Source: Nemertoderma westbladi
Taxonomy: Eukaryota > Animalia > Xenacoelomorpha
Assembly (NCBI GenBank): GCA_032718475.1
Contig: JAUCBJ010002454.1
Span: forward strand, 43,521 to 107,520
Direction: 5' to 3'
DNA length: 64,000 nt
This document shows positions 22,922-50,276 of the stretch, one piece after another (positions within the stretch are counted from its first letter, which is position 1; each line of letters opens with the position of its first letter). Made by a program: the position numbers and the translations under genes. The notes beneath the pieces are model-generated. The model made no database searches. It saw nothing but the letters and a program-made list of their open reading frames with translations, and was not told the origin of the DNA.

Positions 22922-23113
22922 CTTGGCAAATTCCTCTAAATCAGCGTTACTGCAGTCGGTATCGGATTCCGAAGAATCCAGACTGGCGTTGCTGTCGTAC
23001 GCCGGCAACGATTGAAAACCGTCACATAGCAACAGCTGTAAACGAGGTCCAGACGAACGTAATGCTTGCACAGCGTGGGCGTGAGTGACTCCAAGCATAG
23101 AGACCCCGTTAAC
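22922..23113 (-). CDS. scrib: Scribble exon: C-terminal half of PDZ4 (VNGVSMLGVTHAHAVQALRSSGPRLQLLLCDGF...LEEFAK)
   Basis: Acceptor tttgtag (AG at 23115-23114), 192 nt in phase 0/0, donor AAG|GTGAGG. It completes LKVGQRLLE|VNG from exon 52405-52632. The CDGF ending is typical of Scribble PDZ4. Confidence 0.92.
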
Positions 23114-26100
23114 CTACAAAGTAAATATAGACGTGAGTGACTCCAACCAAAGAGACCCCGTTAACCTACAAAGTAAATATAGACGTGAGTGACTCCAACC
23201 AAAGAGACCCCGTTAACCTACAAAGTAAATACAGACGTGAGTGACTCCAACCAAAGAGACCCCGTTAACCTACAAAGTAAATATAGACGTAAGTGACTCC
23301 AACCAAAGAGACCCCGTTAACCTACAAAGTAAATATAGACGTGAGTGACTCCAACCAAAGAGACCCCGTTAACCTACAAAGTAAATATAGACGTGAGTGA
23401 CTCCAACCAAAGAGACCCCGTTAACCTACAAAGTAAATATAGACGTGAGTGACTCCAACCAAAGAGACCCCGTTAACCTACAAAGTAAATATAGACGTGA
23501 GTGACTCCAACCAAAGAGACCCCGTTAACCTACAAAGTAAATACAGACGTGAGTGACTCCAACCAAAGAGACCCCGTTAACCTACAAAGTAAATATAGAC
23601 GTAAGTGACTCCAACCAAAGAGACCACGTTAACCTACAAAGTAAATATAGACGTGAGTGACTCCAACCAAAGAGACCCCGTTAACCTACAAAGTAAATAT
23701 AGACGTGAGTGACTCCAACCAAAGAGACCCCGTTAACCTACAAAGTAAATATAGACGTGAGTGACTCCAACCAAAGAGACCCCGTTAACCTACAAAGTAA
23801 ATATAGACGTGAGTGACTCCAACCAAAGAGACCCCGTTAACCTACAAAGTAAATATAGACGTGAGTGACTCCAACCAAAGAGACCCCGTTAACCTACAAA
23901 GTAAATATAGACGTGAGTGACTCCAACCAAAGAGCCCCCATTAACCTACAAAGTAAATATAGACGTAAGTGACTCCAACCAAAGAGACCCCGTTAACCTA
24001 CAAAGTAAATATAGACGTGAGTGACTCCAACCAAAGAGACCCCGTTAACCTACAAAGTAAATATAGACGTGAGTGACTCCAACCAAAGAGACCCCGTTAA
24101 CCTACAAAGTAAATATAGACGTGAGTGACTCCAACCAAAGAGACCCCGTTAACCTACAAAGTAAATATAGACGTGAGTGACTCCAACCAAAGAGACCCCG
24201 TTAACCTACAAAGTAAATATAGACGTGAGTGACTCCAACCAAAGAGCCCCCATTAACCTACAAAGTAAATATAGACGTAAGTGACTCCAACCAAAGAGAC
24301 CCCGTTAACCTACAAAGTAAATATAGACGTGAGTGACTCCAACCAAAGAGACCCCGTTAACCTACAAAGTAAATATAGACGTGAGTGACTCCAACCAAAG
24401 AGACCCCGTTAACCTACAAAGTAAATATAGACGTGAGTGACTCCAACCAAAGAGACCCCGTTAACCTACAAAGTAAATATAGAGGTGAGTGACTCCAACC
24501 AAAGAGACCCCGTTAACCTACAAAGTAAATATAGACGTGAGTGACTCCAACCAAAGAGACCCCGTTAACCTACAAAGTAAATACAGACGTGAGTGACTCC
24601 AACCAAAGAGACCCCGTTAACCTACAAAGTAAATACAGACGTGAGTGACTCCAACCAAAGAGACTCCGTTAACCTACAAAGTAAATATAGACGTGAGTGA
24701 CTCCAACCAAAGAGACCCCGTTAATCTACAAAGTAAATATAGACGTGAGTGACTCCAACCAAAGAGACCACGTTAACCTACAAAGTAAATATAGACGTGA
24801 GTGACTCCAACCAAAGAGACCCCGTTAACCTACAAAGTAAATATAGACGTGAGTGACTCCAACCAAAGAGACCACGTTAACCTACAAAGTAAATATAGAC
24901 GTGAGTGACTCCAACCAAAGAGACCCCGTTAACCTACAAAGTAAATATAGACGTGAGTGACTCCAACCAAAGAGACCCCGTTAACCTACAAAGTAAATAT
25001 AGAGGTGAGTGACTCCAACCAAAGAGACCCCGTTAACCTACAAAGTAAATATAGACGTGAGTGACTCCAACCAAAGAGACCCCGTTAACCTACAAAGTAA
25101 ATACAGACGTGAGTGACTCCAACCAAAGAGACCCCGTTAACCTACAAAGTAAATACAGACGTGAGTGACTCCAACCAAAGAGACTCCGTTAACCTACAAA
25201 GTAAATATAGACGTGAGTGACTCCAACCAAAGAGACCCCGTTAATCTACAAAGTAAATATAGACGTGAGTGACTCCAACCAAAGAGACCACGTTAACCTA
25301 CAAAGTAAATATAGACGTGAGTGACTCCAACCAAAGAGACCCCGTTAACCTACAAAGTAAATATAGACGTGAGTGACTCCAACCAAAGAGACCACGTTAA
25401 CCTACAAAGTAAATATAGACGTGAGTGACTCCAACCAAAGAGACCCCGTTAACCTACAAAGTAAATATAGAGGTGAGTGACTCCAACCAAAGAGACCCCG
25501 TTAACCTACAAAGTAAATATAGACGTGAGTGACTCCAACCAAAGAGACCCCGTTAACCTACAAAGTAAATACAGACGTGAGTGACTCCAACCAAAGAGAC
25601 CCCGTTAACCTACAAAGTAAATATAGACGTGAGTGACTCCAACCAAAGAGACCCCGTTAACCTACAAAGTAAATATAGACGTGAGTGACTCCAACCAGAG
25701 AACCCGTTAACCTACAAAGTAAATATAGACGTGAGTGACTCCAACCAAAGAGACCCCGTTAACCTACAAAGTAAATACAGACGTGAGTGACTCCAACCAA
25801 AGAGACCCCGTTAACCTACAAAGTAAATACAGACGTGAGTGACTCCAACCAAAGAGACCCCGTTAACCTACAAAGTAAATACAGACGTGAGTGACTCCAA
25901 CCAAAGAGACCCCGTTAACCTACAAAGTAAATACAGACGTGAGTGACTCCAACCAAAGAGACTCCGTTAACCTACAAAGTAAATATAGACGTGAGTGACT
26001 CCAACCAAAGAGACCCCGTTAATCTACAAAGTAAATATAGACGTGAGTGACTCCAACCAAAGAGACCACGTTAACCTACAAAGTAAATATAGACGTGAGT

Positions 26101-29100
26101 GACTCCAACCAAAGAGACCCCGTTAACCTACAAAGTAAATATAGACGTGAGTGACTCCAACCAAAGAGACCACGTTAACCTACAAAGTAAATATAGACGT
26201 GAGTGACTCCAACCAAAGAGACCCCGTTAACCTACAAAGTAAATATAGACGTGAGTGACTCCAACCAAAGAGACCCCGTTAGCCTACAAAGTAAATATAG
26301 ACGTGAGTGACTCCAACCAAAGAGACCCCGTTAACCTACAAAGTAAATACAGACGTGAGTGACTCCAACCAAAGAGACCCCGTTAACCTACAAAGTAAAT
26401 ATAGACGTGAGTGACTCCAACCAAAGAGACCCCGTTAATCTACAAAGTAAATATAGACGTGAGTGACTCCAACCAAAGAGACCCCGTTAATCTACAAAGT
26501 AAATACAGACGTGAGTGACTCCAACCAAAGAGACCCCGTTAACCTACAAAGTAAATATAGACGTGAGTGACTCCATCCAAAGAGACTCCGTTAATCTACA
26601 AAGTAAATATAGACGTGAGTGACTCCAACCAAAGAGACCCCGTTAACCTACAAAGTAAATATAGACGTGAGTGACTCCAACCAAAGAGACCACGTTAACC
26701 TACAAAGTAAATATAGGCGTGAGTGACTCCAACCAAAGAGACTCCGTTAACCTACAAAGTAAATATAGACGTGAGTGACTCCAACCAAAGAGACCCCGTT
26801 AACCTACAAAGTAAATATAGACGTGAGTGACTCCAACCAAAGAGACCCCGTTAACCTACAAAGTAAATACAGACGTGAGTGACTCCAACCAAAGAGACCC
26901 CGTTAACCTACAAAGTAAATATAGACGTGAGTGACTCCAACCAAAGAGACCCCGTTAACCTACAAAGTAAATACAGACGTGAGTGACTCCAACCAAAGAG
27001 ACCCCGTTAACCTACAAAGTAAATATAGACGTGAGTGACTCCAACCAAAGAGACCCCGTTAACCTACAAAGTAAATATAGACGTGAGTGACTCCAACCAA
27101 AGAGACCCCGTTAACCTACAAAGTAAATATAGACGTGAGTGACTCCAACCAAAGAGACTCCGTTAACCTACAAAGTAAATATAGACGTGAGTGACTCCAA
27201 CCAAAGAGACCCCGTTAACCTACAAAGTAAATATAGACGTGAGTGACTCCAACCAAAGAGACCCCGTTAACCTACAAAGTAAATACAGACGTGAGTGACT
27301 CCAACCAAAGAGACCCCGTTAACCTACAAAGTAAATATAGACGTGAGTGACTCCAACCAAAGAGACCCCGTTAACCTACAAAGTAAATATAGACGTGAGT
27401 GACTCCAACCAAAGAGACCCCGTTAACCTACAAAGTAAATATAGACGTGAGTGACTCCAACCAAAGAGACCCCGTTAACCTACAAAGTAAATATAGACGT
27501 GAGTGACTCCAACCAAAGAGACCCCGTTAACCTACAAAGTAAATATAGACGTGAGTGACTCCAACCAAAGAGACCCCGTTAACCTACAAAGTAAATATAG
27601 ACGTGAGTGACTCCAACCAAAGAGACCCCGTTAACCTACAAAGTAAATACAGACGTGAGTGACTCCAACCAAAGAGACCCCGTTAACCTACAAAGTAAAT
27701 ATAGACGTGAGTGACTCCAACCAAAGAGACCCCGTTAACCTACAAAGTAAATATAGACGTGAGTGACTCCAACCAAAGAGACCCCGTTAACCTACAAAGT
27801 AAATATAGACGTGAGTGACTCCAACCAAAGAGACCCCGTTAACCTACAAAGTAAATATAGACGTGAGTGACTCCAACCAAAGAGACCCCGTTAACCTACA
27901 AAGTAAATATAGACGTGAGTGACTCCAACCAAAGAGACCCCGTTAACCTACAAAGTAAATATAGACGTGAGTGACTCCAACCAAAGAGACCCCGTTAACC
28001 TACAAAGTAAATACAGACGTGAGTGACTCCAACCAAAGAGACCCCGTTAACCTACAAAGTAAATATAGACGTGAGTGACTCCAACCAAAGAGACCCCGTT
28101 AACCTACAAAGTAAATACAGACGTGAGTGACTCCAACCAAAGAGACCCCGTTAACCTACAAAGTAAATATAGACGTGAGTGACTCCAACCAAAGAGACCC
28201 CGTTAACCTACAAAGTAAATATAGACGTGAGTGACTCCAACCAAAGAGACCCCGTTAACCTACAAAGTAAATATAGACGTGAGTGACTCCAACCAAAGAG
28301 ACCCCGTTAACCTACAAAGTAAATATAGACGTGAGTGACTCCAACCAAAGAGACCCCGTTAACCTACAAAGTAAATATAGACGTGAGTGACTCCAACCAA
28401 AGAGACCCCGTTAACCTACAAAGTAAATATAGACGTGAGTGACTCCAACCAAAGAGACCCCGTTAACCTACAAAGTAAATACAGACGTGAGTGACTCCAA
28501 CCAAAGAGACCCCGTTAACCTACAAAGTAAATATAGACGTGAGTGACTCCAACCAAAGAGACCCCGTTAACCTACAAAGTAAATATAGACGTGAGTGACT
28601 CCAACCAAAGAGACCCCGTTAACCTACAAAGTAAATATAGACGTGAGTGACTCCAACCAAAGAGACCCCGTTAACCTACAAAGTAAATATAGACGTGAGT
28701 GACTCCAACCAAAGAGACCCCGTTAACCTACAAAGTAAATATAGACGTGAGTGACTCCAACCAAAGAGACCCCGTTAACCTACAAAGTAAATATAGACGT
28801 GAGTGACTCCAACCAAAGAGACCCCGTTAACCTACAAAGTAAATATAGACGTGAGTGACTCCAACCAAAGAGACCCCGTTAACCTACAAAGTAAATATAG
28901 ACGTGAGTGACTCCAACCAAAGAGACCCCGTTAACCTACAAAGTAAATACAGACGTGAGTGACTCCAACCAAAGAGACCCCGTTAACCTACAAAGTAAAT
29001 ACAGACGTGAGTGACTCCAACCAAAGAGACCCCGTTAACCTACAAAGTAAATATAGACGTGAGTGACTCCAACCAAAGAGACCCCGTTAACCTACAAAGT

Positions 29101-32100
29101 AAATATAGACGTGAGTGACTCCAACCAAAGAGACCCCGTTAACCTACAAAGTAAATATAGACGTGAGTGACTCCAACCAAAGAGACCCCGTTAACCTACA
29201 AAGTAAATATAGACGTGAGTGACTCCAACCAAAGAGACCCCGTTAACCTACAAAGTAAATATAGACGTGAGTGACTCCAACCAAAGAGACCCCGTTAACC
29301 TACAAAGTAAATATAGACGTGAGTGACTCCAACCAAAGAGACCCCGTTAACCTACAAAGTAAATATAGACGTGAGTGACTCCAACCAAAGAGACCCCGTT
29401 AACCTACAAAGTAAATACAGACGTGAGTGACTCCAACCAAAGAGACCCCGTTAACCTACAAAGTAAATACAGACGTGAGTGACTCCAACCAAAGAGACCC
29501 CGTTAACCTACAAAGTAAATATAGACGTGAGTGACTCCAACCAAAGAGACCCCGTTAACCTACAAAGTAAATATAGACGTGAGTGACTCCAACCAAAGAG
29601 ACCCCGTTAACCTACAAAGTAAATACAGACGTGAGTGACTCCAACCAAAGAGACCCCGTTAACCTACAAAGTAAATATAGACGTGAGTGACTCCAACCAA
29701 AGAGACCCCGTTAACCTACAAAGTAAATATAGACGTGAGTGACTCCAACCAAAGAGACCCCGTTAACCTACAAAGTAAATATAGACGTGAGTGACTCCAA
29801 CCAAAGAGACCCCGTTAACCTACAAAGTAAATACAGACGTGAGTGACTCCAACCAAAGAGACCCCGTTAACCTACAAAGTAAATATAGACGTGAGTGACT
29901 CCAACCAAAGAGACCCCGTTAACCTACAAAGTAAATATAGACGTGAGTGACTCCAACCAAAGAGACCCCGTTAACCTACAAAGTAAATATAGACGTGAGT
30001 GACTCCAACCAAAGAGACCCCGTTAACCTACAAAGTAAATATAGACGTGAGTGACTCCAACCAAAGAGACCCCGTTAACCTACAAAGTAAATATAGACGT
30101 GAGTGACTCCAACCAAAGAGACCCCGTTAACCTACAAAGTAAATATAGACGTGAGTGACTCCAACCAAAGAGACCCCGTTAACCTACAAAGTAAATATAG
30201 ACGTGAGTGACTCCAACCAAAGAGACCCCGTTAACCTACAAAGTAAATATAGACGTGAGTGACTCCAACCAAAGAGACCCCGTTAACCTACAAAGTAAAT
30301 ATAGACGTGAGTGACTCCAACCAAAGAGACCCCGTTAACCTACAAAGTAAATACAGACGTGAGTGACTCCAACCAAAGAGACCCCGTTAACCTACAAAGT
30401 AAATATAGACGTGAGTGACTCCAACCAAAGAGACCCCGTTAACCTACAAAGTAAATATAGACGTGAGTGACTCCAACCAAAGAGACCCCGTTAACCTACA
30501 AAGTAAATACAGACGTGAGTGACTCCAACCAAAGAGACCCCGTTAACCTACAAAGTAAATATAGACGTGAGTGACTCCAACCAAAGAGACCCCGTTAACC
30601 TACAAAGTAAATATAGACGTGAGTGACTCCAACCAAAGAGACCCCGTTAACCTACAAAGTAAATATAGACGTGAGTGACTCCAACCAAAGAGACCCCGTT
30701 AACCTACAAAGTAAATATAGACGTGAGTGACTCCAACCAAAGAGACCCCGTTAACCTACAAAGTAAATATAGACGTGAGTGACTCCAACCAAAGAGACCC
30801 CGTTAACCTACAAAGTAAATATAGACGTGAGTGACTCCAACCAAAGAGACCCCGTTAACCTACAAAGTAAATACAGACGTGAGTGACTCCAACCAAAGAG
30901 ACCCCGTTAACCTACAAAGTAAATATAGACGTGAGTGACTCCAACCAAAGAGACCCCGTTAACCTACAAAGTAAATATAGACGTGAGTGACTCCAACCAA
31001 AGAGACCCCGTTAACCTACAAAGTAAATACAGACGTGAGTGACTCCAACCAAAGAGACCCCGTTAACCTACAAAGTAAATATAGACGTGAGTGACTCCAA
31101 CCAAAGAGACCCCGTTAACCTACAAAGTAAATATAGACGTGAGTGACTCCAACCAAAGAGACCCCGTTAACCTACAAAGTAAATATAGACGTGAGTGACT
31201 CCAACCAAAGAGACCCCGTTAACCTACAAAGTAAATACAGACGTGAGTGACTCCAACCAAAGAGACCCCGTTAGCCTACAAAGTAAATATAGACGTAAGT
31301 GACTCCAACCAAAGAGACCCCGTTAACCTACAAAGTAAATACAGACGTGAGTGACTCCAACCAAAGAGACCCCGTTAACCTACAAAGTAAATACAGACGT
31401 GAGTGACTCCAACCAAAGAGACCCCGTTAACCTACAAAGTAAATATAGGCGTGAGTGACTCCAACCAAAGAGACCCCGTTAACCTACAAAGTAAATATAG
31501 ACGTGAGTGACTCCAACCAAAGAGACCCCGTTAACCTACAAAGTAAATATAGACGTGAGTGACTCCAACCAAAGAGACCCCGTTAACCTACAAAGTAAAT
31601 ACAGACGTGAGTGACTCCAACCAAAGAGACCCCGTTAGCCTACAAAGTAAATATAGACGTGAGTGACTCCAACCAAAGAGACCCCGTTAACCTACAAAGT
31701 AAATACAGACGTGAGTGACTCCAACCAAAGAGACCCCGTTAACCTACAAAGTAAATACAGACGTGAGTGACTCCAACCAAAGAGACCCCGTTAACCTACA
31801 AAGTAAATACAGACGTGAGTGACTCCAACCAAAGAGACCCCGTTAACCTACAAAGTAAATACAGACGTGAGTGACTCCAACCAAAGAGACCCCGTTAACC
31901 TACAAAGTAAATATAGGCGTGAGTGACTCCAACCAAAGAGACCCCGTTAACCTACAAAGTAAATATAGACGTGAGTGACTCCAACCAAAGAGACCCCGTT
32001 AACCTACAAAGTAAATACAGACGTGAGTGACTCCAACCAAAGAGACCCCGTTAGCCTACAAAGTAAATATAGACGTAAGTGACTCCAACCAAAGAGACCC

Positions 32101-35100
32101 CGTTAACCTACAAAGTAAATATAGACGTGAGTGACTCCAACCAAAGAGACCCCGTTAACCTACAAAGTAAATATAGACGTAAGTGACTCCAACCAAAGAG
32201 ACCCCGTTAACCTACAAAGTAAATATAGACGTGAGTGACTCCAACCAAAGAGACCCCATTAACCTACAAAGTAAATATAGACGTGAGTGACTCCAACCAA
32301 AGAGACCCCGTTAATCTACAAAGTAAATATAGACGTGAGTGACTCCAACCAAAGAGACCCCGTTAATCTACAAAGTAAATATAGACGTGAGTGACTCCAA
32401 CCAAAGAGACCCCGTTAACCTACATAGTAAATATAGACGCGAGTGACTCCAACCAAAGAGACCCCGTTAACCTACATAGTAATTATAGACGTGAGTGACT
32501 CCAACCAAAGAGACCCCGTTAACCTACAAAGTAAATATAGACGTGAGTGACTCCAAGCATAGAGACCCCGTTAACCTACAAAGTAAATACAGACGTGAGT
32601 GACTCCAACCAAAGAGACCCCGTTAACCTACATAGTAAATATAGACGCGAGTGACTCCAACCAAAGAGACCCCGTTAACCTACATAGTAATTATAGACGT
32701 GAGTGACTCCAACCAAAGAGACCCCGTTAACCTACAAAGTAAATATAGACGTGAGTGACTCCAAGCATAGAGACCCCGTTAACCTACAAAGTAAATACAG
32801 ACGTGAGTGACTCCAACCAAAGAGACCCCGTTAACCTACAAAGTAAATATAGACGTGAGTGACTCCAACCAAAGAGACCCCGTTAACCTACAAAGTAAAT
32901 ACAGACGTGAGTGACTCCAACCAAAGAGACCCCGTTAATCTACAAAGTAAATATAGAGGTGAGTGACTCCAACCAAAGAGACCCCGTTAGCCTACAAAGT
33001 AAATATAGACGTGAGTGACTCCAACCAAAGAGACCCCGTTAACCTACAAAGTAAATACAGACGTGAGTGACCCCAACCAAAGAGACCCCGTTAACCTACA
33101 AAGTAAATATAGACGTGAGTGACTCCAACCAAAGAGACCCCGTTAATCTACAAAGTAAATATAGAGGTGAGTGACTCCAACCAAAGAGACCCCGTTAGCC
33201 TACAAAGTAAATATAGACGTGAGTGACTCCAACCAAAGAGACCCCGTTAGCCTACAAAGTAAATATAGACGTGAGTGACTCCAACCAAAGAGACCCCGTT
33301 AGCCTACAAAGTAAATATAGACGTGAGTGACTCCAACCAAAGAGACCCCGTTAACCTACAAAGTAAATATAGACGTGAGTGACTCCAACCAAAGAGACCC
33401 CGTTAGCCTACAAAGTAAATATAGACGGTGAGTGACTCCAACCAAAGAGACCCCGTTAACCTACAAAGTAAATATAGACGTAAGTGACTCCAACCAAAGA
33501 GACCCCGTTAACCTACAAAGTAAATATAGACGTGAGTGACTCCAACCAAAGAGACCCCGTTAATCTACAAAGTAAATATAGACGTGAGTGACTCCAACCA
33601 AAGAGACCCCGTTAACCTACAAAGTAAATATAGACGTAAGTGACTCCAACCAAAGAGACCCCGTTAACCTACAAAGTAAATATAGACGTGAGTGACTCCA
33701 ACCAAAGAGACCCCGTTAACCTACAAAGTAAATATAGACGTGAGTGACTCCAACCAAAGAGACCCCGTTAACCTACAAAGTAAATATAGACGTAAGTGAC
33801 TCCAACCAAAGAGACCCCGTTAACCTACAAAGTAAATATAGACGTGAGTGACTCCAACCAAAGAGACCCCGTTAACCTACAAAGTAAATATAGACGTGAG
33901 TGACTCCAACCAAAGAGACCCCGTTAACCTACAAAGTAAATATAGACGTGAGTGACTCCAACCAAAGAGACCCCGTTAACCTACAAAGTAAATATAGACG
34001 TGAGTGACTCCAACCAAAGAGACCCCGTTAACCTACAAAGTAAATATAGACGTGAGTGACTCCAACCAAAGAGACCCCGTTAATCTACAAAGTAAATATA
34101 GACGTGAGTGACTCCAACCAAAGAGACCCCGTTAATCTACAAAGTAAATATAGACGTGAGTGACTCCAACCAAAGAGACCCCGTTAACCTACAAAGTAAA
34201 TATAGACGTGAGTGACTCCAACCAAAGAGACCCCGTTAACCTACAAAGTAAATATAGACGTGAGTGACTCCAACCAAAGAGACCCCGTTAACCTACAAAG
34301 TAAATATAGACGTGAGTGACTCCAACCAAAGAGACCCCGTTAACCTACAAAGTAAATATAGACGTGAGTGACTCCAACCAAAGAGACCCCGTTAACCTAC
34401 AAAGTAAATATAGACGTGAGTGACTCCAACCAAAGAGACCCCGTTAACCTACAAAGTAAATATAGACGTGAGTGACTCCAACCAAAGAGACCCCGTTAAC
34501 CTACAAAGTAAATATAGACGTGAGTGACTCCAACCAAAGAGACCCCGTTAACCTACAAAGTAAATACAGACGTGAGTGACTCCAACCAAAGAGACCCCGT
34601 TAACCTACAAAGTAAATATAGACGTGAGTGACTCCAACCAAAGAGACCCCGTTAACCTACAAAGTAAATATAGACGTGAGTGACTCCAACCAAAGAGACC
34701 CCGTTAACCTACAAAGTAAATACAGACGTGAGTGACTCCAACCAAAGAGACCCCGTTAACCTACAAAGTAAATATAGACGTGAGTGACTCCAACCAAAGA
34801 GACCCCGTTAACCTACAAAGTAAATATAGACGTGAGTGACTCCAACCAAAGAGACCCCGTTAACCTACAAAGTAAATATAGACGTGAGTGACTCCAACCA
34901 AAGAGACCCCGTTAACCTACAAAGTAAATATAGACGTGAGTGACTCCAACCAAAGAGACCCCGTTAACCTACAAAGTAAATATAGACGTGAGTGACTCCA
35001 ACCAAAGAGACCCCGTTAACCTACAAAGTAAATATAGACGTGAGTGACTCCAACCAAAGAGACCCCGTTAACCTACAAAGTAAATATAGACGTGAGTGAC

Positions 35101-38100
35101 TCCAACCAAAGAGACCCCGTTAACCTACAAAGTAAATATAGACGTGAGTGACTCCAACCAAAGAGACCCCGTTAACCTACAAAGTAAATATAGACGTGAG
35201 TGACTCCAACCAAAGAGACCCCGTTAACCTACAAAGTAAATATAGACGTGAGTGACTCCAACCAAAGAGACCCCGTTAACCTACAAAGTAAATATAGACG
35301 TGAGTGACTCCAACCAAAGAGACCCCGTTAACCTACAAAGTAAATATAGACGTGAGTGACTCCAACCAAAGAGACCCCGTTAACCTACAAAGTAAATATA
35401 GACGTGAGTGACTCCAACCAAAGAGACCCCGTTAACCTACAAAGTAAATATAGACGTGAGTGACTCCAACCAAAGAGACCCCGTTAACCTACAAAGTAAA
35501 TATAGACGTGAGTGACTCCAACCAAAGAGACCCCGTTAACTCTACAAAGTAAATATAGACGTGAGTGACTCCAACCAAAGAGACCCCGTTAACCTACAAA
35601 GTAAATATAGACGTGAGTGACTCCAACCAAAGAGACCCCGTTAACCTACAAAGTAAATATAGACGTGAGTGACTCCAACCAAAGAGACCCCGTTAACCTA
35701 CAAAGTAAATATAGACGTGAGTGACTCCAACCAAAGAGACCCCGTTAACCTACAAAGTAAATATAGACGTGAGTGACTCCAACCAAAGAGACCCCGTTAA
35801 CCTACAAAGTAAATATAGACGTGAGTGACTCCAACCAAAGAGACCCCGTTAACCTACAAAGTAAATATAGACGTGAGTGACTCCAACCAAAGAGACCCCG
35901 TTAACCTACAAAGTAAATATAGACGTGAGTGACTCCAACCAAAGAGACCCCGTTAACCTACAAAGTAAATATAGACGTGAGTGACTCCAACCAAAGAGAC
36001 CCCGTTAATCTACAAAGTAAATATAGACGTGAGTGACTCCAACCAAAGAGACCCCGTTAACCTACAAAGTAAATATAGACGTGAGTGACTCCAACCAAAG
36101 AGACCCCGTTAACCTACAAAGTAAATATAGACGTGAGTGACTCCAACCAAAGAGACCCCGTTAACCTACAAAGTAAATATAGACGTGAGTGACTCCAACC
36201 AAAGAGACCCCGTTAGCCTACAAAGTAAATATAGACGTGAGTGACTCCAACCAAAGAGACCCCGTTAACCTACAAAGTAAATATAGACGTGAGTGACTCC
36301 AACCAAAGAGACCCCGTTAACCTACAAAGTAAATATAGACGTGAGTGACTCCAACCAAAGAGACCCCGTTAACCTACAAAGTAAATATAGACGTGAGTGA
36401 CTCCAACCAAAGAGACCCCGTTAACCTACAAAGTAAATATAGACGTGAGTGACTCCAACCAAAGAGACCCCGTTAACCTACAAAGTAAATACAGACGTGA
36501 GTGACTCCAACCAAAGAGCCCCCGTTAGCCTACAAAGTAAATATAGACGTGAGTGACTCCAACCAAAGAGACCCCGTTAACCTACAAAGTAAATATAGAC
36601 GTGAGTGACTCCAACCAAAGAGACCCCGTTAACCTACAAAGTAAATATAGACGTGAGTGACTCCAACCAAAGAGACCCCGTTAACCTACAAAGTAAATAT
36701 AGACGTGAGTGACTCCAACCAAAGAGCCCCCGTTAGCCTACAAAGTAAATATAGACGTGAGTGACTCCAACCAAAGAGACCCCGTTAATCTACAAAGTAA
36801 ATATAGACGTGAGTGACTCCAACCAAAGAGACCCCGTTAATCTACAAAGTAAATATAGACGTGAGTGACTCCAACCAAAGAGACCCCGTTAACCTACAAA
36901 GTAAATATAGACGTGAGTGACTCCAACCAAAGAGACCCCGTTAACCTACAAAGTAAATATAGACGTGAGTGACTCCAACCAAAGAGACCCCGTTAACCTA
37001 CAAAGTAAATATAGACGTGAGTGACTCCAACCAAAGAGCCCCCGTTAGCCTACAAAGTAAATATAGACGTGAGTGACTCCAACCAAAGAGACCCCGTTAA
37101 CCTACAAAGTAAATATAGACGTGAGTGACTCCAACCAAAGAGACCCCGTTAATCTACAAAGTAAATATAGACGTGAGTGACTCCAACCAAAGAGACCCCG
37201 TTAACCTACAAAGTAAATACAGACGTGAGTGACTCCAACCAAAGAGACCCCGTTAATCTACAAAGTAAATATAGACGTGAGTGACTCCAACCAAAGAGAC
37301 CCCGTTAACCTACAAAGTAAATATAGACGTGAGTGACTCCAACCAAAGAGACCCCGTTAATCTACAAAGTAAATATAGACGTGAGTGACTCCAACCAAAG
37401 AGACCCCGTTAACCTACAAAGTAAATACAGACGTGAGTGACTCCAACCAAAGAGACCCCGTTAATCTACAAAGTAAATATAGACGTGAGTGACTCCAACC
37501 AAAGAGACCCCGTTAGCCTACAAAGTAAATATAGACGTGAGTGACTCCAACCAAAGAGACCCCGTTAATCTACAAAGTAAATATAGACGTGAGTGACTCC
37601 AACCAAAGAGACCCCGTTAATCTACAAAGTAAATATAGACGTGAGTGACTCCAACCAAAGAGACCCCGTTAATCTACAAAGTAAATATAGACGTGAGTGA
37701 CTCCAACCAAAGAGACCCCGTTAGCCTACAAAGTAAATATAGACGTGAGTGACTCCAACCAAAGAGACCCCGTTAACCTACAAAGTAAATATAGACGTGA
37801 GTGACTCCAACCAAAGAGAACCCGTTAACCTACAAAGTAAATACAGACGTGAGTGACTCCAACCAAAGAGACCCCGTTAACCTACAAAGTAAATATAGAC
37901 GTGAGTGACTCCAACCAAAGAGACCCCGTTAACCTACAAAGTAAATACAGACGTGAGTGACTCCAACCAAAGAGACCCCGTTAATCTACAAAGTAAATAT
38001 AGGCGTGAGTGACTCCAACCAAAGAGACCCCGTTAACCTACAAAGTAAATACAGACGTGAGTGACTCCAACCAAAGAGACCCCGTTAACCTACAAAGTAA

Positions 38101-41100
38101 ATATAGACGTGAGTGACTCCAACCAAAGAGACCCCGTTAACCTACAAAGTAAATACAGACGTGAGTGACTCCAACCAAAGAGACCCCGTTAACCTACAAA
38201 GTAAATACAGACGTGAGTGACTCCAACCAAAGAGACCCCGTTAATCTACAAAGTAAATATAGGCGTGAGTGACTCCAACCAAAGAGACCCCGTTAACCTA
38301 CAAAGTAAATACAGACGTGAGTGACTCCAACCAAAGAGACCCCGTTAATCTACAAAGTAAATATAGACGTGAGTGACTCCAACCAAAGAGACCCCGTTAA
38401 CCTACAAAGTAAATATAGACGTGAGTGACTCCAACCAAAGAGAACCCGTTAACCTACAAAGTAAATACAGACGTGAGTGACTCCAACCAAAGAGACCCCG
38501 TTAATCTACAAAGTAAATATAGGCGTGAGTGACTACAACCAAAGAGACCCCGTTAACCTACAAAGTAAATACAGACGTGAGTGACTCCAACCAAAGAGAC
38601 CCCGTTAACCTACAAAGTAAATACAGACGTGAGTGACTCCAACCAAAGAGACCCCGTTAATCTACAAAGTAAATATAGGCGTGAGTGACTCCAACCAAAG
38701 AGAACCCGTTAACCTACAAAGTAAATACAGACGTGAGTGACTCCAACCAAAGAGACCCCGTTAACCTACAAAGTAAATATAGACGTGAGTGACTCCAACC
38801 AAAGAGACCCCGTTAACCTACAAAGTAAATATAGACGTGAGTGACTCCAACCAAAGAGACCCCGTTAACCTACAAAGTAAATATAGACGTGAGTGACTCC
38901 AACCAAAGAGACCCCGTTAACCTACAAAGTAAATACAGACGTGAGTGACTCCAACCAAAGAGACCCCGTTAACCTACAAAGTAAATATAGACGTGAGTGA
39001 CTCCAACCAAAGAGACCCCGTTAACCTACAAAGTAAATACAGACGTGAGTGACTCCAACCAAAGAGACCCCGTTAACCTACAAAGTAAATATAGACGTGA
39101 GTGACTCCAACCAAAGAGACCCCGTTAACCTACAAAGTAAATATAGACGTGAGTGACTCCAACCAAAGAGACCCCGTTAACCTACAAAGTAAATATAGAC
39201 GTGAGTGACTCCAACCAAAGAGACCCCGTTAACCTACAAAGTAAATACAGACGTGAGTGACTCCAACCAAAGAGACCCCGTTAACCTACAAAGTAAATAT
39301 AGACGTGAGTGACTACAACCAAAGAGACCCCGTTAACCTACAAAGTAAATATAGACGTGAGTGACTCCAACCAAAGAGACCCCGTTAACCTACAAAGTAA
39401 ATACAGACGTGAGTGACTCCAACCAAAGAGACCCCGTTAACCTACAAAGTAAATACAGACGTGAGTGACTCCAACCAAAGAGACCCCGTTAATCTACAAA
39501 GTAAATATAGGCGTGAGTGACTCCAACCAAAGAGACCCCGTTAACCTACAAAGTAAATACAGACGTGAGTGACTCCAACCAAAGAGACCCCGTTAACCTA
39601 CAAAGTAAATACAGACGTGAGTGACTCCAACCAAAGAGACCCCGTTAATCTACAAAGTAAATACAGACGTGAGTGACTCCAACCAAAGAGACCCCGTTAA
39701 CCTACAAAGTAAATATAGACGTGAGTGACTCCAACCAAAGAGACACCGTTAACCTACAAAGTAAATATAGACGTGAGTGACTCCAACCAAAGAGACCCCG
39801 TTAATCTACAAAGTAAATATAGGCGTGAGTGACTCCAAGCAAAGAGACCCCGTTAACCTACAAAGTAAATATAGACGTGAGTGACTCCAACCAAAGAGAC
39901 ACCGTTAACCTACAAAGTAAATATAGACGTGAGTGACTCCAACCAAAGAGACACCGTTAACCTACAAAGTAAATATAGACGTGAGTGACTCCAACCAAAG
40001 AGACCCCGTTAACCTACAAAGTAAATACAGACGTGAGTGACTCCAACCAAAGAGACCCCGTTAATCTACAAAGTAAATATAGACGTGAGTGACTCCAACC
40101 AAAGAGACCCCGTTAACCTACAAAGTAAATACAGACGTGAGTGACTCCAACCAAAGAGACCCCGTTAACCTACAAAGTAAATACAGACGTGAGTGACTCC
40201 AACCAAAGAGACCCCGTTAACCTACAAAGTAAATACAGACGTGAGTGACTCCAACCAAAGAGACCCCGTTAACCTACAAAGTAAATATAGGCGTAAGTGA
40301 CTCCAACCAAAGAGACCCCGTTAACCTACAAAGTAAATATAGACGTGAGTGACTCCAACCAAAGAGACCCCGTTAATCTACAAAGTAAATATAGACGTGA
40401 GTGACTCCAACCAAAGAGACCCCGTTAACCTACAAAGTAAATATAGACGTGAGTGACTCCAAGCATAGAGACCCCGTTAACCTACAAAGTAAATATAGAC
40501 GTGAGTGACTCCAACCAAAGAGACCCCGTTAACCTACAAAGTAAATATAGACGTAAGTGACTCCAACCAAAGAGCCCCCGTTAACCTACAAAGTAAATAC
40601 AGACGTGAGTGACTCCAACCAAAGAGCCCCCGTTAACCTACAAAGTAAATACAGACGTGAGTGACTCCAACCAAAGAGACCCCGTTAACCTACAAAGTAA
40701 ATACAGACGTGAGTGACTCCAACCAAAGAGCCCCCGTTAACCTACAAAGTAAATACAGACGTGAGTGACTCCAACCAAAGAGACCCCGTTAACCTACAAA
40801 GTAAATATAGGCGTAAGTGACTCCAACCAAAGAGACCCCGTTAACCTACAAAGTAAATATAGACGTGAGTGACTCCAACCAAAGAGACCCCGTTAATCTA
40901 CAAAGTAAATATAGACGTGAGTGACTCCAACCAAAGAGACCCCGTTAACCTACAAAGTAAATATAGACGTAAGTGACTCCAACCAAAGAGACCCCGTTAA
41001 CCTACAAAGTAAATATAGACGTGAGTGACTCCAACCAAAGAGACCCCGTTAATCTACAAAGTAAATATAGACGTGAGTGACTCCAACCAAAGAGACCCCG

Positions 41101-41975
41101 TTAACCTACAAAGTAAATATAGACGTGAGTGACTCCAACCAAAGAGACCCCGTTAACCTACAAAGTAAATACAGACGTGAGTGACTCCAACCAAAGAGCC
41201 CCCGTTAGCCTACAAAGTAAATATAGACGTGAGTGACTCCAACCAAAGAGACCCCGTTAACCTACAAAGTAAATATAGACGTGAGTGACTCCAACCAAAG
41301 AGACCCCGTTAACCTACAAAGTAAATACAGACGTGAGTGACTCCAACCAAAGAGACCCCGTTAACCTACAAAGTAAATATAGACGTGAGTGACTCCAACC
41401 AAAGAGACCCCGTTAACCTACAAAGTAAATATAGACGTGAGTGACTCCAACCAAAGAGACCCCGTTAACCTACAAAGTAAATATAGACGTGAGTGACTCC
41501 AACCAAAGAGACCCCGTTAACCTACAAAGTAAATATAGACGCGAGTGACTCCAACCAAAGAGACCCCGTTAACCTACAAAGTAAATATAGAGGTGAGTGA
41601 CTCCAACCAAAGAGACCCCGTTAACCTACAAAGTAAATATAGAGGTGAGTGACTCCAACCAAAGAGACCCCGTTAACCTACAAAGTAAATATAGACGTGA
41701 GTGACTCCAACCAAAGAGACCCCGTTAACCTACAAAGTAAATATAGACGCGAGTGACTCCAACCAAAGAGACCCCGTTAATCTACAAAGTAAATATAGAC
41801 GTGAGTGACTCCAACCAAAGAGACCCCGTTAACCTACAAAGTAAATATAGACGTGAGTGACTCCAACCAAAGAAACCCCGTTAACCTACAAAGTAAATAT
41901 AGACGTGAGTGACTCCAACCAAAGAGACCCCGTTAACCTACAAAGTAAATATAGACGTGAGTGACTTCATCCAAA
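23078..41975. repeat. 52-bp satellite, ~360 copies, derived from the scrib intron/exon junction
   Basis: Unit gacgtgagtgactccaaccaaagagaccccgttaacctacaaagtaaatata, period 52. The first copy overlaps the PDZ4 exon. Confidence 0.98.
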
Positions 41976-42907
41976 GGCTAAGTTAATCAACATTCACAGA
42001 TCATGACACTGAATTTATTTTCAATATGTTATACGATAATTGTATCCCATTAATAATACCACCAAAATGTATCTGGTACGGTCTACAGTAAGAGCCTAAA
42101 GGAACATCTATAAAAGATTTGTTTCGCTGTTCGCGTGACTTACCTTCGATATCAACTGCAATAAGTGCCTTAATTAACTGCATATCATTATTTGTATGAG
42201 CTAATAATTGATGTATCTAATTATTTGCTCACTATAACCTGTTCTTCTAGTGTAAACAGTGCAATCTATGATAGTCTACTTTAACTTATTGCCTTGTATA
42301 TTTGCTGAATATCCAAACCATATATATAAACCCAACTAATTCTCATCTAACACAAATATATCATAATTTTTATTATAATTACAAAACATAATCCTATCCC
42401 TGCAATTCCATTAAAATATTCGAATTGGGGGCAGTGGCCAGTATCTCAAAGTCAGAAAATAATTTATAAGAATCACTTTAAATAAAAGATTTTAATAAAC
42501 CTTGTTTCATAATTCTTAGGCTTATTTATTTCTTTAGTAGTAATTATTTTTTGAGCGACTTTTTAATCAGCAATTATTTCGACGAATTGTTTTACACACC
42601 CGACTCCCGTTTATTACTGTAAAACTCACTCGCTGCCCTACTGTTTCTACTATTCACACACAATGATATTTGTTTCTATTCTCGAAAATGAGGATAAAAT
42701 ATCAAACAAAATTGTAATTAATTTATCTGTCTAACAAAAAAATGTATACTTTTTAAAAAAATACTAATAGTTATTAACTGCTGCTAAATATTAAATAATA
42801 TATATATATTTTGAAGAAATTGAGTTGCATTATTGTACATTTTCCAAATTTCCCTGATATCTGTTTGCAGCTGCGATTCCAGGCGTAGCCTACTCTCTGT
42901 TACCTGT

Positions 42908-44483
42908 ATGTCTCTCAATCCTGCATTCGTATCTGGCAATGACCAAGAACCACCCCAAGTTAACTTACTCTATGTGGAAGAGAAAAAGAATGAGCCAATG
43001 CTTATTGATGAAATCTCATCTGAGAACTGCGCCGACAAGGTAAGAGGCGATTTCCATTTGAACAAGTTATTAGGGCGAGTAAATAATGCGAGCCATCAGC
43101 GAAATGTTATAATTATAATTAAATTGTTGGCTAGATGGCTTGCAGCTTTTGCTGCACGAAGCCACTCGGTCCGCATCCTCTGGCCTTCAACATTCAAGGA
43201 TGAACTCCGTGTAGGCTATGGGTACGTTCACACATAAACAGTAAACTTTCAATATGCAACTATCAAAATCCACATTTCCTGTTCTCTCTTACTTGAAAGT
43301 TGAAAGCTGGCATTTCTAGCTTTGATAACCAATCAGAAGTAACAACGATATACCTATTCCTATTGAATGAATATCGTAGTTATCTGAAAGTTAAAAGTTC
43401 ATGTGCGAATAAACCTCATATGTTTAAAAGCACATATAGGTATCTATATAGTTATAGCCCACCATAGATATTCGGTATGTGATAATTAATAAATGTCTAC
43501 AAACTGGAATGATGTAGCACCGAAGTTTTTTATTAAAACACCTTTTGATGGTCTTTTGTCTAATTTTTTTTCCTTAAAGTGTCTTATTTGTCCGCATTTT
43601 TGGGGATATAAAAGTGAATTTTTAAAAGTAAAAATAATTATGAACTGCCACTATTGCTGCCATTTATTTATTCTGACAGATATTTTATTTATGTTTTTAG
43701 ATTGTTTCCAAACTCCGCATAAATAATCCAACAATACGTGCATGTTTGTCTGAGTGTTTGGCGACCTTCATTCTCTTATTAATTGGCAATGGATCTGTGG
43801 CACAATCCGTTCTGAGCAGAGGGACACTTGGCTCGCCCCTATCTATACAAATATCTTGGGGTTTTGCAGTAACATTGGCTGTTTACTTCACAAATGGATT
43901 GAGTGGCGGCCACATAAACCCAGCGATATCCTTAGCAATGTTCGCTTTAGGGAAGATCAACTGGAGGCAACTAGTGGGGTACACGGTCGCGCAGTTTCTT
44001 GGTGCGTTCATTGCGTCACCACTATTATATGCAGTTTATTGGGACGCATTCAACGAGTTCGACGGCGGTATCCGTCAGGCTTTTGGACCAAACGGTACAG
44101 CTGGTATATTCGCCACCTATCCTACTGAGTGGCTAACTGTGGGAGGCGGGGTACTCGATCAGGTTGTAGCTACTGCGGTTCTAGCTGCGACTGTATGCGC
44201 GGTCACTGACCCTTCCAACAAGGTCCCTAAAGGGGTTGAACCCGTACTCGTTGGGTTCATGGTGATTCTACTTGGTACAGGTCTCGGTTTGAACTGTGGT
44301 TATCCACTCAACCCCGCTCGGGATTTCTCTCCCCGGCTGTTTATGTCGCTGGCCGGCTGGGGTTCGGAGGTTTGGATGACAGCCAATGGGGTACATTGGT
44401 GGTGGGTGCCAGTAGTCGGACCATACATAGGTGGTCTAGTAGGAGTATTCTTATATAAAGTCATTGTTCCTATGCATAATTAG
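42908..44483 (+). CDS. Aquaglyceroporin (AQP3/7/9/10-like), copy 1; exons 42908-43039 and 43701-44483, ~304 aa
   Basis: Motifs SGGHINPA and GYPLNPARD (Asp after NPAR is the glyceroporin signature), GIFATYP and WWWVPVVGP. The phase-0 intron runs AAG|GTAAGA...tttttag|ATT. Exon 1 has the same length in copy 2. Confidence 0.93.
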
Positions 44484-46119
44484 TTACATTTTAGAACAAT
44501 GCCATATTTTTAGCACATTAGGATATTTCCAAATGATATTTGTACACTCGAATTTGAAATAACAAAGCCTAAATAGACAGAAAACCTGAGAAATATAATC
44601 TGGGATACACGATAACCAACAAAGAAACCAAAATACCATTTTCAAATTGGTGCCAGATATTATTATTCGCTTTAATTATTTGCTTTTACTTTATACATAA
44701 CTTAGTTGCTACATAGTTGTTATTTAATTATAATAAGCATAAATATATTTAGAGTCATTAGATGTGGTGCAATTTGTAGAATATTGTAAACAAATTTCAA
44801 TTACAATGTAATTAAATGCAAACTTTGGACCTTCCACTTAGCTCCTAGTGTAACCAACCACATTCGCCCTCTAGTGTCCAATATGCTTCTACTTACAGAC
44901 ACTGAGTGAAACTCAGTCTCCTTCTTTATGTAACTGCTGCTAAGTTGACTGCGAAGTTGACTGTCTAACTGTCATACTTTTCCTACCGCTATCTTCTTCT
45001 CCAGAAACGTCCCCCATGAAACTGTTTTGTTGTGGAATATTTGATATCGATGTGGCAGTTTAATCTCCATAGCTTTCTAAAGTTTATATTTATAGAACTG
45101 GAATCATAGGTGTAATTTATTTCATACAGCCTCAAATATGATTCCAGCATATCCAATCTGCCACACACACCGCTTTTTGCTCATGACCTTTCTAAGGGTC
45201 CGTATGTTCCGCTAGTAATGCCCCAACCCATTTATTAACAGTTCGCTACTTATTATGTATAAAATGCTTTCGGCATGTTTAGAGGTTAGGTGCAACAGTG
45301 TGATTTCCGGCCAATTACACTTTTTTCCAATAAAATCAGGATTACCCTTTTTATGGATTACGTTTTTTTTTGTTATGGATTGCATTACAGCTAAAGGTTG
45401 CTCTCCTTTGAGCACAATTATTCGTCTCACAACATTCGTAACAATAACCTCGATGCATATTTTGGAAGGGATTCACAATGTAAACTTATCTGGATAGGAA
45501 CGCTTTTGGAGGCTTTGTATCGAATCGACACAATGAAATGATCACTCTTCGCCATCCACGGGAACGGTGAGTCCCACACGTGGTCTAAGACCCAGACGAT
45601 ATACCATCCCGAGGTTGTGGTAAATCAACTTACTCTAATATCTTACTCTAGCTTCATGACCTTTTTTTAACTTAGGACCATCAGCATACCTGCATAAGCA
45701 GCTGATACGAAAATGGTGCTACTGGAATAAGTAGCTTATCAATATGGCCTTGCTTTCAGCCAATAGGATCCATCTCTAGTATCCTGGCAACATATAATTT
45801 GTGATCAGCTATGAACCAGCTAGCAAAAAAAATGTTACCTACTGTGATGAATTAACTCAGGGAAGAGGGATAAGTTGAGTTCATAGGTATGAATTTCCCG
45901 GTGTTGAACACATAAAGTGCGTACTGATTTTAAGTTTAAATCAGCCGTTTGCTGCCAGACTGAATGGTGGTGCCTCGACAAACTGACAGCTTCAGCAGTT
46001 AGCTTGTAGGCCAATACATTGCGCATAGCTGCCCGATTTATTGATGTTATTTGATATTTTTTAGTTTGGCCAACAACTTGTTTTGCTCAGTTTACTTTTA
46101 TTATGACCTTTCAACACCA

Positions 46120-47030
46120 TATCCTGGAATATAGTGTCGTAATTCAGTAACTTGAATTCCCCCAAACCCCCCCCCCCCCCCCCCCCCCCCACCCACCCAC
46201 CACATTTTTCTGCAAATTTTAATGAGATTACAATTTGAAATACAGATAGTTTCACTTCCCGACCACTGACTGGGTGAGTCAGAATTTTTATTTTGCTTTC
46301 AATCTGTAGCTACAAGCGATTGAAAAAGGTGTCACGACGAAATTTCACCAGTTACAAATTACGCCGCAGTTATTCTTCAACCTCCTATTGATTTGTTAGT
46401 TGTTAGTACTGATGGAAAGCTGCCCCTGCAAGGATTCCAAATATGCAACACAATCTGAATTTCGTTGAAAAATAGCTGAGATATGAGCGTTCAAATGTTG
46501 GATGTTTTGCTTCTGCGCTTCTTCCTATTTAATTATTCACCATTATTTTTGAACATTTTGTTTATGTATGAATAGCTACCAGTTATTGCCTTGTTGCAGA
46601 AATAATGAAAATGCCCGAAACCAGAATATGGTACATTTATTAAATAAAATAAAATAGCCTCGCGCAGCTGCAAAACCATGCAACTTTCGAACGCTAATAT
46701 CTCAGCTATTCATCAACGAATTCTGATGGTGTTATATATTTGGAATCCTTGCATGGCCAGCTTTCTAACATTACCAACAAATGAAAAGGTTTAAGAATAA
46801 CTGCGGTGTAACTGGTGCAATATCGGAAGAGACACTTTCTTAAAAAGCTTGTAGCTACAGATTGAAAGCAAAAATAAAAATTGACCCACGGAGGAGGAGG
46901 GAGGTGATGCTATTTTTTTTCATGCAATATCATTAAGATTAATATAAAAAAATTAGGAGGGTGTGGGGGGGGGGGGGGGGGGTTGTGTGGGGCGGTATCT
47001 GACGAAGTCACTATATTCTAGGACATGGTG
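46120..47030. mobile_element. Palindromic (foldback) MITE-like element
   Basis: Symmetric inverted segments: tcctggaatatagtg/cactatattctagga, poly-C/poly-G, aatctgtagctacaagc/gcttgtagctacagatt, caaggattccaaatat/atatttggaatccttg, gctgagatat/atatctcagc. Confidence 0.75.
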
Positions 47031-47269
47031 TAAGTAGTATATATACAGTAGAAGATACCACATTACTGCGGCATTTTCAGTAGCGAAGTAATACAGTCTT
47101 TCCTGTAAAGCTCTGGCGAGTACCTTTACCATGAATAAGAACCTGAAACTTGAACACTAAGAAAACATGCAGCTGATATTATTATTATAATCGTAATTCC
47201 TCAGTTACTTCTAAGCCTAAGCGTAAGGTGGCTGGCTGATTGTAGAGTTTACGTTACGCTTTAGAGCAA

Positions 47270-47775
47270 TGGGTACAAAGGTTAATGGGTAGAACGAGTC
47301 AAAGGGAAGAAAACGAGTCAAATGGTACAACAGGAAATGGTACAACGAGACAAAGGGTAGAAACCAGGTGGTCAAAGGGTACAAAACAGGACGTCAAAGG
47401 GTACACAAAAACGAGTCAAAGTGTACAACATCAAAGGGTACAACGAGTCAAAGGGTACAAACAAGGCGGTTATTTAGTTTGTTTAATACTTTGGTTAAAG
47501 GGTTAGTTGGAATTTAGCAGAAATTAAGCGGAATTTCTTAGATTATGACTTAGGGTTACATGACAGTTTTAATTAGGTTTGAGGACGCGAGTAACCAGCG
47601 AGTTGTGTAACCAGCGAGTTTCATACAGTATCAAAATCCCTGTTGTTCACTTTGTCCTGTTGTACCCTTTCTATAATATTTGTACCCTTTGACGTGGTTT
47701 TTGTACCCTTTGACATGGCTGTCGGACCCTTTTTTCCATTTTTGTACTCTTTGACTCGATGTACCCTTTGACTCG
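47270..47775. repeat. Degenerate short repeats in inverted blocks (aaagggtacaa / ttgtacccttt)
   Basis: The block at ~47270-47465 is mirrored by the complementary motif block at ~47650-47775. This is probably a MITE remnant. Confidence 0.6.
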
Positions 47776-48622
47776 GAATCCTGCGTTGCGTTGAAGCGCG
47801 ATAGGATAGATAGGTACTGAGGTACCGGTTCCCGGAATCCACACAGACACTGATCAGTAAATTCGTAACCTCGATTTTGTCAGTCAGTGGGTGACATTGT
47901 GGTTGAGACGGTTAGCGTTAGTGTAATATCTCTTTGAGATAAGAATATATATTTACGGTTTGAAATGCTCCTTGGGCACCAACTCATGGAAACTTCCTGC
48001 AACCAATAGGGAAACACCAATGATGTCACCTGTAGGGTAGGTGTGGCATATTGGTCTACGAAAGTAAAACCATAAACATGCTGAATTCGGACGAGGCTAT
48101 AAATGCTTCAAATTGTAGACTTGAAATGATTGGCCGATATTTGGATAAGCCATGATTCTCTGGAAATTGCCACTGAAATTCCAGACAAATTCCAGACGCT
48201 GACATTCCTGCCTCATGCGACATCATTTTTTATGGTAGTTTTTATTGGCGTAGGCCTATTGCATTTAATTTTCCCATTGATGTTTCATGTTACATAAAAA
48301 TTTAATATGTTTTGGCTACATCAAGCTCCATTTTCCCTTCAAAACCTTGAGTTGATGAGAGAGGAACGTAAGAAATAGAAATAGAAAGGCATTTGACATT
48401 GTCCAGTCTGTCTGATTAAGAAAAGATGAATAGCAGAAGTTCAGCAAGCGAATCCAAATCATAACTATAACACCAGGTGAATAGAATATATTTACCCAAA
48501 TATTGGATATAATATTTATTTGTAACAAATAGTACGTATTTGTTCGTATTATTGTACATAGGTTGTCAATAAGTTACTAGCTACACTTTTAGCCGCACTT
48601 TTTCTCACCATAACTGCCGACT

Positions 48623-50276
48623 ATGTCTCTGACGCCAGTATTCGTATCTGACAAAGACCAAGAAGCAGCACAAGTTAACTTGCTACATGTGGAAGAGAAA
48701 AAAAGTGAACCAATGACTTTAGATGAAAACACTTCTAAGAACTGGGTCGACAAGGTAAGACTTAGGCTAATTATGTAAGGGATGTCCTTTAAGCCATGTA
48801 AGACACGACTATTAAATAGTGAGAGGAAACAGGCAGGTCAGCCAAAGACATTCCTGAAACATCTGGTAAAGATGGTGTTGATAATACAGTGGAGATATGC
48901 ATGGTGATCGCAAACCATATGTTTTTGTTTTACCTCATTTTCAGAGACTGGGGCTGGAATTGAAGCAAATCTCAAACGGTGATTAACATATCAGTGAATT
49001 AACTAACGGTATGTTAATTATAAGGGAAAGGAGCAGGTTACAGTGTCGCGTTATTCTAACCAAAACAATAAACGAAACTCAATAGAAGAGATTACTGACC
49101 AATTATTGGGCCCATGTGAAGAATACCAGACTTTCCGCTGTATATTTCTCTTTGCAGTTTACCCCATTCCCCATGTGAAGGTTTTCACTAAAAAACTAGG
49201 TTACAGAAGGGCTGAATGTAACCAAAACAATAAACAACTTAATATCTGTACAGGCTGTAAGATAGAAATGAGCGCTTTAAAGCACTTACTATGGAGAAAT
49301 TAAACAAAACACAAATTCTTCATATATAAAAAACAAATCCAATATAAAGTCGACCAAATATTCTTCAGATGGGCGATTTTTGCTCGCACCTAGCTGTTAT
49401 TTGCGACGATTTTCCATGGTGAGGGCCCACTCCATAACTGTATTCCGTTGTCCTTTATTATTACTGACAGAACTTCCTATTTTATTTTTTTAGATTGTTT
49501 CCAAACTCCGCATAAATAATTCAACAATACGTGCATGTTTGTCTGAGTGTTTGGCGACCTTCATTCTCTTATTAATTGGCAATGGATCTGTGGCACAATT
49601 CGTTCTGAGCAGAGGGACACTTGGCTCGCCCCTATCTATACAAATATCTTGGGGTTTTGCAGTAACATTGGCTGTTTATTTCTCAAATGGGTTGAGTGGC
49701 GGCCACATAAACCCAGCGATATCCTTAGCAATGTTCGCTTTAGGGAAGATCAACTGGAGGCAACTAGTGGGGTACACGGTCGCGCAGTTTCTTGGTGCGT
49801 TCATTGCGTCACCACTATTATATGCAGTTTATTGGGACGCATTCAACCAGTTCGACGGCGGTATCCGTCAGGCTTTTGGACCAAACGGTACAGCTGGTAT
49901 ATTCGCCACCTATCCTACTGAGTGGCTGACTGTGGGAGGCGGGGTACTCGATCAGGTTGTAGCTACTGCGGTTCTAGCTGCGACTGTATGCGCTGTCACT
50001 GACCCATCCAACAAGGTCCCTAAAGGGGTTGAACCCATACTCGTTGGGTTCATGGTACTTCTAATTGGTATGAGTCTTGGTTTCAATTGCGGTTTCCCAC
50101 TCAACCCCGCTCGGGATTTCTCTCCCCGGCTGTTTATGTCGCTGGCCGGCTGGGGTTCGGAGGTTTGGATGACAGCCAATGGGGTACATTGGTGGTGGGT
50201 GCCAGTAGTCGGACCATACATAGGTGGTCTAGTAGGAGTATTCTTATATAAAGTCATTGTTGCTATGCATCAGTAG
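48623..50276 (+). CDS. Aquaglyceroporin, copy 2; exons 48623-48754 and 49494-50276, ~304 aa
   Basis: Same structure and exon lengths (132 + 783 nt) as copy 1, with SGGHINPA and GFPLNPARD and canonical GT-AG sites. Confidence 0.93.

Follow-up and report, generated by a model that had tools for sequence, protein, structure and literature searches.

A 363-unit minisatellite across the scribble PDZ4 intron/exon boundary of Nemertoderma westbladi, probably neutral and spliced at its last copy

The window analysed here, a stretch of 64,000 nt of Nemertoderma westbladi DNA, carries part of a scribble gene on its minus strand. Three exons encode PDZ domains, and the PDZ3-PDZ4 tandem is most similar to Scribble (LAP4). 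The boundaries of the PDZ3 exon (53236-52878) were placed by reading frame and splice consensus, and a protein search with this exon returned at least 120 matches, mostly named vertebrate Scribble. PDZ4 is split: its first half lies on a 228-nt exon (52632-52405) that ends at the donor GAG/GTGAGT, a junction taken from an RNA contig, and its second half on a 192-nt, phase 0 exon (23113-22922) assigned by RNA and protein similarity. The exons flanking the array described below have structures of human Scribble PDZ3-4 as their best match (E = 1.5e-21 and 3.3e-7), and the two halves of PDZ4 abut at the same residue of that chain. The next exon (20260-20201, 60 nt) has a start set by RNA and a predicted donor, and a candidate additional exon from 16875 to about 16600 on the minus strand is in phase with it and has no Pfam match. 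The N-terminal leucine-rich repeats and PDZ1-2 would fall past the end of the window. Read on the transcribed strand, the acceptor tract of the exon with the first half of PDZ4 consists of 26 uninterrupted C (52635-52660).

The two halves of PDZ4 are separated by a phase 0 intron of 29,291 nt (23114..52404, minus strand), which consists to 64% of a 52-bp array and, upstream of it, of 10,417 nt of non-array sequence. Within this intron lie an 826-bp direct repeat pair (43663-44486 and 49454-50279, 95.8% identity), a self-inverted stretch (46173-46982) and a diverged piece (50684-51082) of a broken, multi-frame reverse-transcriptase element. The larger copy of the latter (6400-8138, minus strand; RVT_1, E = 1e-14 and 1.4e-9) is presumably of the non-LTR type. 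An inverted pair occupies 12790-13159 and 14992-15358.

Tandem Repeats Finder also reports unrelated arrays in the same gene, with periods of 41, 19 and 44 bp, which show that this genome is prone to local amplification. A 19-bp array of 100 copies (18290-20189, minus strand) begins about 12 nt past the predicted donor of the 60-nt exon. The 41-bp array (53505-64000+, minus strand) has at least 258 copies and continues past the window; it stops some 30 nt short of an acceptor-like TTTGTTTGCAG at about 53475, which lies 269 nt upstream of the PDZ3 exon and marks a possible 9-nt micro-exon. Other arrays lie at 9001-9916 (44 bp, 20 copies) and 51736-51895 (53 bp, three copies). Two of seven array ends fall within 35 nt of an exon boundary (a rough, after-the-fact P of ~0.006), hinting that arrays start at exon edges.

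Tandem Repeats Finder places the 52-bp array at 23080-41976, counting 363.4 copies and giving 98% matches. Counted backwards from the true acceptor at 23114, it divides into 363 units (41987-23114, minus strand): 359 of 52 nt, two of 50 nt and two of 53 nt. There are 40 sequence types, the exact consensus accounts for 193 of the 363 units, and mean divergence from it is 1.1%. Variant units cluster locally, and one 10-unit block occurs repeated. Homogeneous units number 362 (23114..41937), each made of the first 34-36 nt of the exon and the last 16-18 nt of the intron, so that the tandem unit spans the intron/exon boundary of its host gene. The remaining unit, at the 5' edge (41938..41987, 50 nt), follows the consensus exactly from unit position 24 onwards and is decayed 5' of that point; the same edge is found in samples S1 and S2. 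The low divergence, the local clusters and the degenerate edge together describe a pattern of concerted evolution from which the boundary unit is exempt.

The sequence-only reading had described about 360 copies of an acceptor in scribble PDZ4, spread over 19 kb, with the real acceptor last in transcript order, and the segmentation back from 23114 agrees on both counts. It had also counted three substitutions between the unit and the exon start. Indeed, 33 of 36 positions match, with differences at 16, 19 and 35, and a partition into 34 nt of exon and 18 nt of intron, with two differences, fits equally well. TAG closes all 363 units (in one, segmentation leaves an extra letter), and the last TAG (23116-23114) is the functional acceptor according to the RNA contig. 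With stops in all six frames, the array was judged not to code for protein. The array is a 'mirage', that is, a junction-spanning minisatellite of a class already described; its special features are its size and its difference in length between samples.

Long arrays of near-identical units are hard to assemble, and an artefact had already been raised as a possible objection. Seven of eight candidate sequencing runs (all but X8), none of them recorded as RNA, were aligned to the locus. X6 and X7, from other organisms, match neither the exon nor the unit at 80% similarity, and X5 gives no aligned contig; these blanks carry no weight as evidence. Run X1 is identical to the window and may be its source. 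Its unit contigs reach depths of 6357 and 6540 and its exon contig one of 29.1; the resulting ratios, 218 and 225, agree with mean 31-mer counts of 206 and 262 in the assembly. Far fewer copies in sample S2 would favour an artefact; against one stand the matching depth, the 40 unit types in local clusters and the presence of both array edges in two samples. That the scribble copy is dead is countered by three exons spliced together with an open frame. An artefact or a dead copy is thus largely refuted and, in our estimate, extremely improbable. The array is real and not a product of assembly.

The depth ratios in S2 are 9-19 (run X2) and 24 (run X4). Scaled, the depths correspond to 312-384 units in X1 and about 16-36 in S2, rough values since contig depth is no copy number; the S2 estimate rests on the X1 calibration and on the agreement of the two S2 libraries. 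S2 carries a divergent allele. Across 22082-23127, about 840 intronic nt of S2 show 14 substitutions and five gaps relative to the window, and the exon shows one substitution; these differences mark the species as highly polymorphic. The array looks orthologous between the samples and appears to vary roughly 10-20-fold in length. The degenerate edge common to both suggests that it is not recent, and the depth difference suggests that its length is still unstable and fits weak constraint on that length. Somatic instability has reportedly been seen in one other array of this class, the Adh3 mirage.

Splicing was followed in run X3, which is catalogued as guessed DNA yet behaves as RNA. A contig of 1741 nt and depth 182 covers the genome at 22921-23119 only and leaves most of the flanking intron uncovered. 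Its loose ends exactly match 52411-52440 in the upstream exon and 20230-20259 in the next exon; therefore, 52405 is joined to 23113 and this exon in turn to 20260. The contig differs at two letters, one an allele at 22978 and the other, we infer, an overlap of exon ends near 23116. The canonical junction 52405 to 23113, which was to be set against junctions into repeat units, is thus present, and no contig in this one RNA set, represented by contigs from which rare forms are dropped, bears any of the 362 upstream acceptor copies (hereafter decoys). Depth is 0 in bin 23131-23165, and the two adjoining bins are fully explained by the canonical contig alone, so no decoy contig lies there. The X3 individual likely carries the array, judging from the same old edge in both DNA samples. 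The canonical junction alone is seen in one contig set from one individual, and if that animal resembles S2, the contig reflects a short allele and not the 363-copy one.

The signals upstream of the decoys do not set the working copy apart. A yUnAy-type CTCAC has its A at -21 of the unit AG, as the sequence-only reading had noted, and further yUnAy matches lie at -48 and -9. The polypyrimidine tract of the real site is mediocre (9/13 pyrimidines), and 361 array AGs have the same score; the ordinary 10.4 kb upstream of the array contain 42 YAGs of equal tract quality. An upstream context identical to the real one had been ascribed to every unit. This holds for 190 of the 362 decoys over 60 nt and for 241 over 40 nt, and not for the remainder. 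An upstream feature peculiar to the working copy was ruled out, since decoys share its upstream sequence. Nor does predicted RNA folding give the real acceptor an advantage, with a paired probability of tract and AG of 0.58 versus 0.54 for a decoy. Only the downstream context distinguishes the last AG: the entire exon comes after it, and a donor lies 192 nt on.

What follows each decoy TAG bears on a second possibility, that the units are recursive splice sites through which the 29-kb intron is removed stepwise. The earlier claim that every unit reads TAG/GTTAAC is correct for 307 of the 362; the others read ATTAAC (36), GCTAAC (16) or GTTAAT (3), so that GT is missing from 52. The 307 units with TAG/GT and the length of the intron speak for recursion, as does the AG/GT core around which known recursive sites are built (PMC6110457). 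Fly recursive sites are described there as 3' and 5' motifs set side by side, which score strongly and are conserved. The scribble units share with these the AG/GT core and the setting in a long intron, but they have neither a strong nor a downstream donor, their GT is unconserved and they stand in hundreds of adjacent copies. The regenerated GAG/GTTAAC would match five of nine consensus positions in a simple count, whereas the four real donors match 6-8 and are all GTRAG. The array contains no GTRAG and no GTRA, against 12 GTRAG in the 10.4-kb non-array part of the intron, and the intron contains no YAG/GTRAG. No strong 5' splice site lies right after the 3' site, and a within-array test does not find AG/GT conserved above background. 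Recursive splicing, which the sequence-only reading had offered as one option, is accordingly poorly supported, and we regard it as very unlikely.

A third possibility is that copy number tunes the dosage of Scribble between individuals, either through leaky decoys that feed NMD or through sequestration of 3' splice-site factors by the array. In silico, 359 of the 362 decoys, if used, lead to a stop after 18 codons, as had been proposed for all of them, and the other three to one after 33-34 codons; a premature stop is predicted for all 362 products. This outcome, the 361 AGs with a tract equal to that of the real site and the roughly 10-20-fold length difference between two samples would suit such a system, and in the steady-state X3 contigs, which come from one study, decoy products degraded by NMD would be hidden. 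On the other hand, no decoy contig accompanies the canonical contig of depth 182, and the X3 steady-state contigs give no positive evidence of NMD-based regulation. A donor is within exon range for only the last few decoys, so added upstream copies would change little. Furthermore, the array shows no significant selection on its splice signals: variable columns number 4/18 in the intron part versus 16/34 in the exon part (P = 0.13). The invariance of the AG does not exceed chance (P = 0.37) and is uninformative because 32 of the 52 unit columns are invariant. No unit of the 363 lacks TAG, so the decoys are not visibly purged by selection (again not significant). We think it improbable that a hypervariable set of some 20 to 360 intact acceptors acts as a dial on Scribble output, although somewhat less so than recursion.

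The reading we favour, and hold to be probable, is that of a neutral 363-unit minisatellite across the scribble PDZ4 intron/exon boundary, with RNA spliced at the last copy. The skipping of the decoys, one of three options put forward from the letters alone, is the one backed by the X3 contig, and that interpretation as a whole is partly supported. The extra copies are probably passed over, since a complete exon and a real donor come after none but the last. The exon-definition model is well established. Under it, upstream decoys with no donor in reach would not be defined as exon starts during transcription, and once the donor at 22921 is transcribed, it would pair with the nearest acceptor that gives the full 192-nt exon. 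Real competition would then be confined to the last few decoys, which would give exons of 244, 296 and 348 nt, all with an early stop. Some pseudo-sites are used in donor-side arrays (6-16 gene, CBS intron 13), so leakage is plausible. Classic experiments with duplicated acceptors conflict, and the proximal copy was favoured in some, as summarised in PMC1557585.

The first 34 nt of the 192-nt exon are the source of the exonic part of the unit. The array presumably began as a local tandem duplication of 52 bp that spanned the acceptor, followed by expansion and homogenisation via slippage or unequal exchange. Comparison of units identifies four with exon-type alleles (span 32524..40481, minus strand). 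In three of them (40481-40430, 32783-32732 and 32575-32524) the first 34 nt are identical to the exon. A proposed diagnostic to tell the canonical junction from decoy junctions, TTGGTT versus ATGCTT, would consequently fail at these three units. The fourth, unit 42 (39857-39806), has the exon letters at 19 and 35; it reads VNGVSLLGVTHA, nearer to vertebrate Scribble (SLLG) than the exon itself (SMLG), and may keep an older exon state. The array's 21 variant alleles include all three exon-specific letters (chance P = 0.002), so the array may trade sequence with its own coding exon. These alleles deep in the array support, at the level of sequence comparison, a unit derived from the exon, where either founder states have persisted or exchange took place later. 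As another possible origin, we considered an 11-nt microhomology of the exon with the former end of the intron. The edge unit resembles the repeat further 5', a resemblance equalled by 15 of 1960 overlapping control windows, and it shares unit letters 16 and 19; for these two reasons it is preferably read as a decayed copy.

Although the sequence-only reading implied that this architecture is without precedent, the literature describes several relatives. Mirages in the described cases have units of 10-160 bp (PMC3087553), a range into which the 52-bp unit falls, and the splice signal is kept in 363 of 363 scribble units. The BflGb6 mirage joins the 3' intron end to the 5' part of exon 2 and has six and three units in two haplotypes; its boundary units lie outside homogenisation and regular splicing is unaffected (PMC3087553). 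PMC3902484 presents the lancelet PGBD5, Adh and TnC mirages as similar to BflGb6, and the BflGb6, Adh3 and TnC mirages leave splicing undisturbed (PMC3087553, PMC3902484). The lancelet mirages (Adh3, troponin C, BflGb6/BflGb9 and PGBD5) resemble the scribble array in that splice signals are kept, copy number varies, and homogenisation affects the inner units but not those at the boundary. They differ in scale: BflGb6 has 3-6 units of 150-160 bp and PGBD5 has 2-7 units, whereas the scribble array has 363 units in 18.9 kb.

Human genes provide further parallels. In CBS 844ins68 the junction between intron 7 and exon 8 is duplicated, with strong preference for the distal site and a normal mRNA; the passage says 'donor', while the title of the paper it cites concerns 3' splice-site selection (PMC2630376). 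Unlike the scribble array, this case, as described there, has two copies and is tied to c.833T>C. Junction minisatellites are described in F7 intron 7, the 6-16 gene, CBS intron 13, LMNB2 and PDGF (PMC1557585). Here too the unit spans an exon/intron boundary, identical pseudo-sites are mostly silent and the exon-adjacent site wins, as in the scribble RNA contig. In contrast to the scribble array, these lie on the donor side and have 5-25 copies, and in the 6-16 gene and CBS splicing also occurs at the nearest pseudo-sites (PMC1557585). Boundary repeats can create new introns (PMC2812944), a route that does not fit the scribble array. Intron gain by AG/GT tandem duplication was likewise rejected, as the donor bears no relation to the unit and is separated from the array by 10,417 nt of other sequence upstream of it. 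An array of hundreds of acceptors was not found in the literature searched, which is weak evidence given its incomplete coverage. The scribble array is likely a harmless and unusually large case of a known repeat type.

The value of the locus lies in its scale, as the class and the likely outcome, use of the exon-adjacent copy, are already known. It has 190 decoys with the same 60 nt upstream as the real site, all transcribed before it, and its alleles seem to differ 10-20-fold in copy number. It thereby offers a natural test of 3' splice-site choice, for which 5'-to-3' scanning predicts use of the first copy and exon definition use of the last. Clean splicing in a carrier of the 363-copy allele would mean that the spliceosome is not committed by branch point, tract and AG alone. 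Were output instead to fall with copy number, the array would represent a new kind of dosage control.
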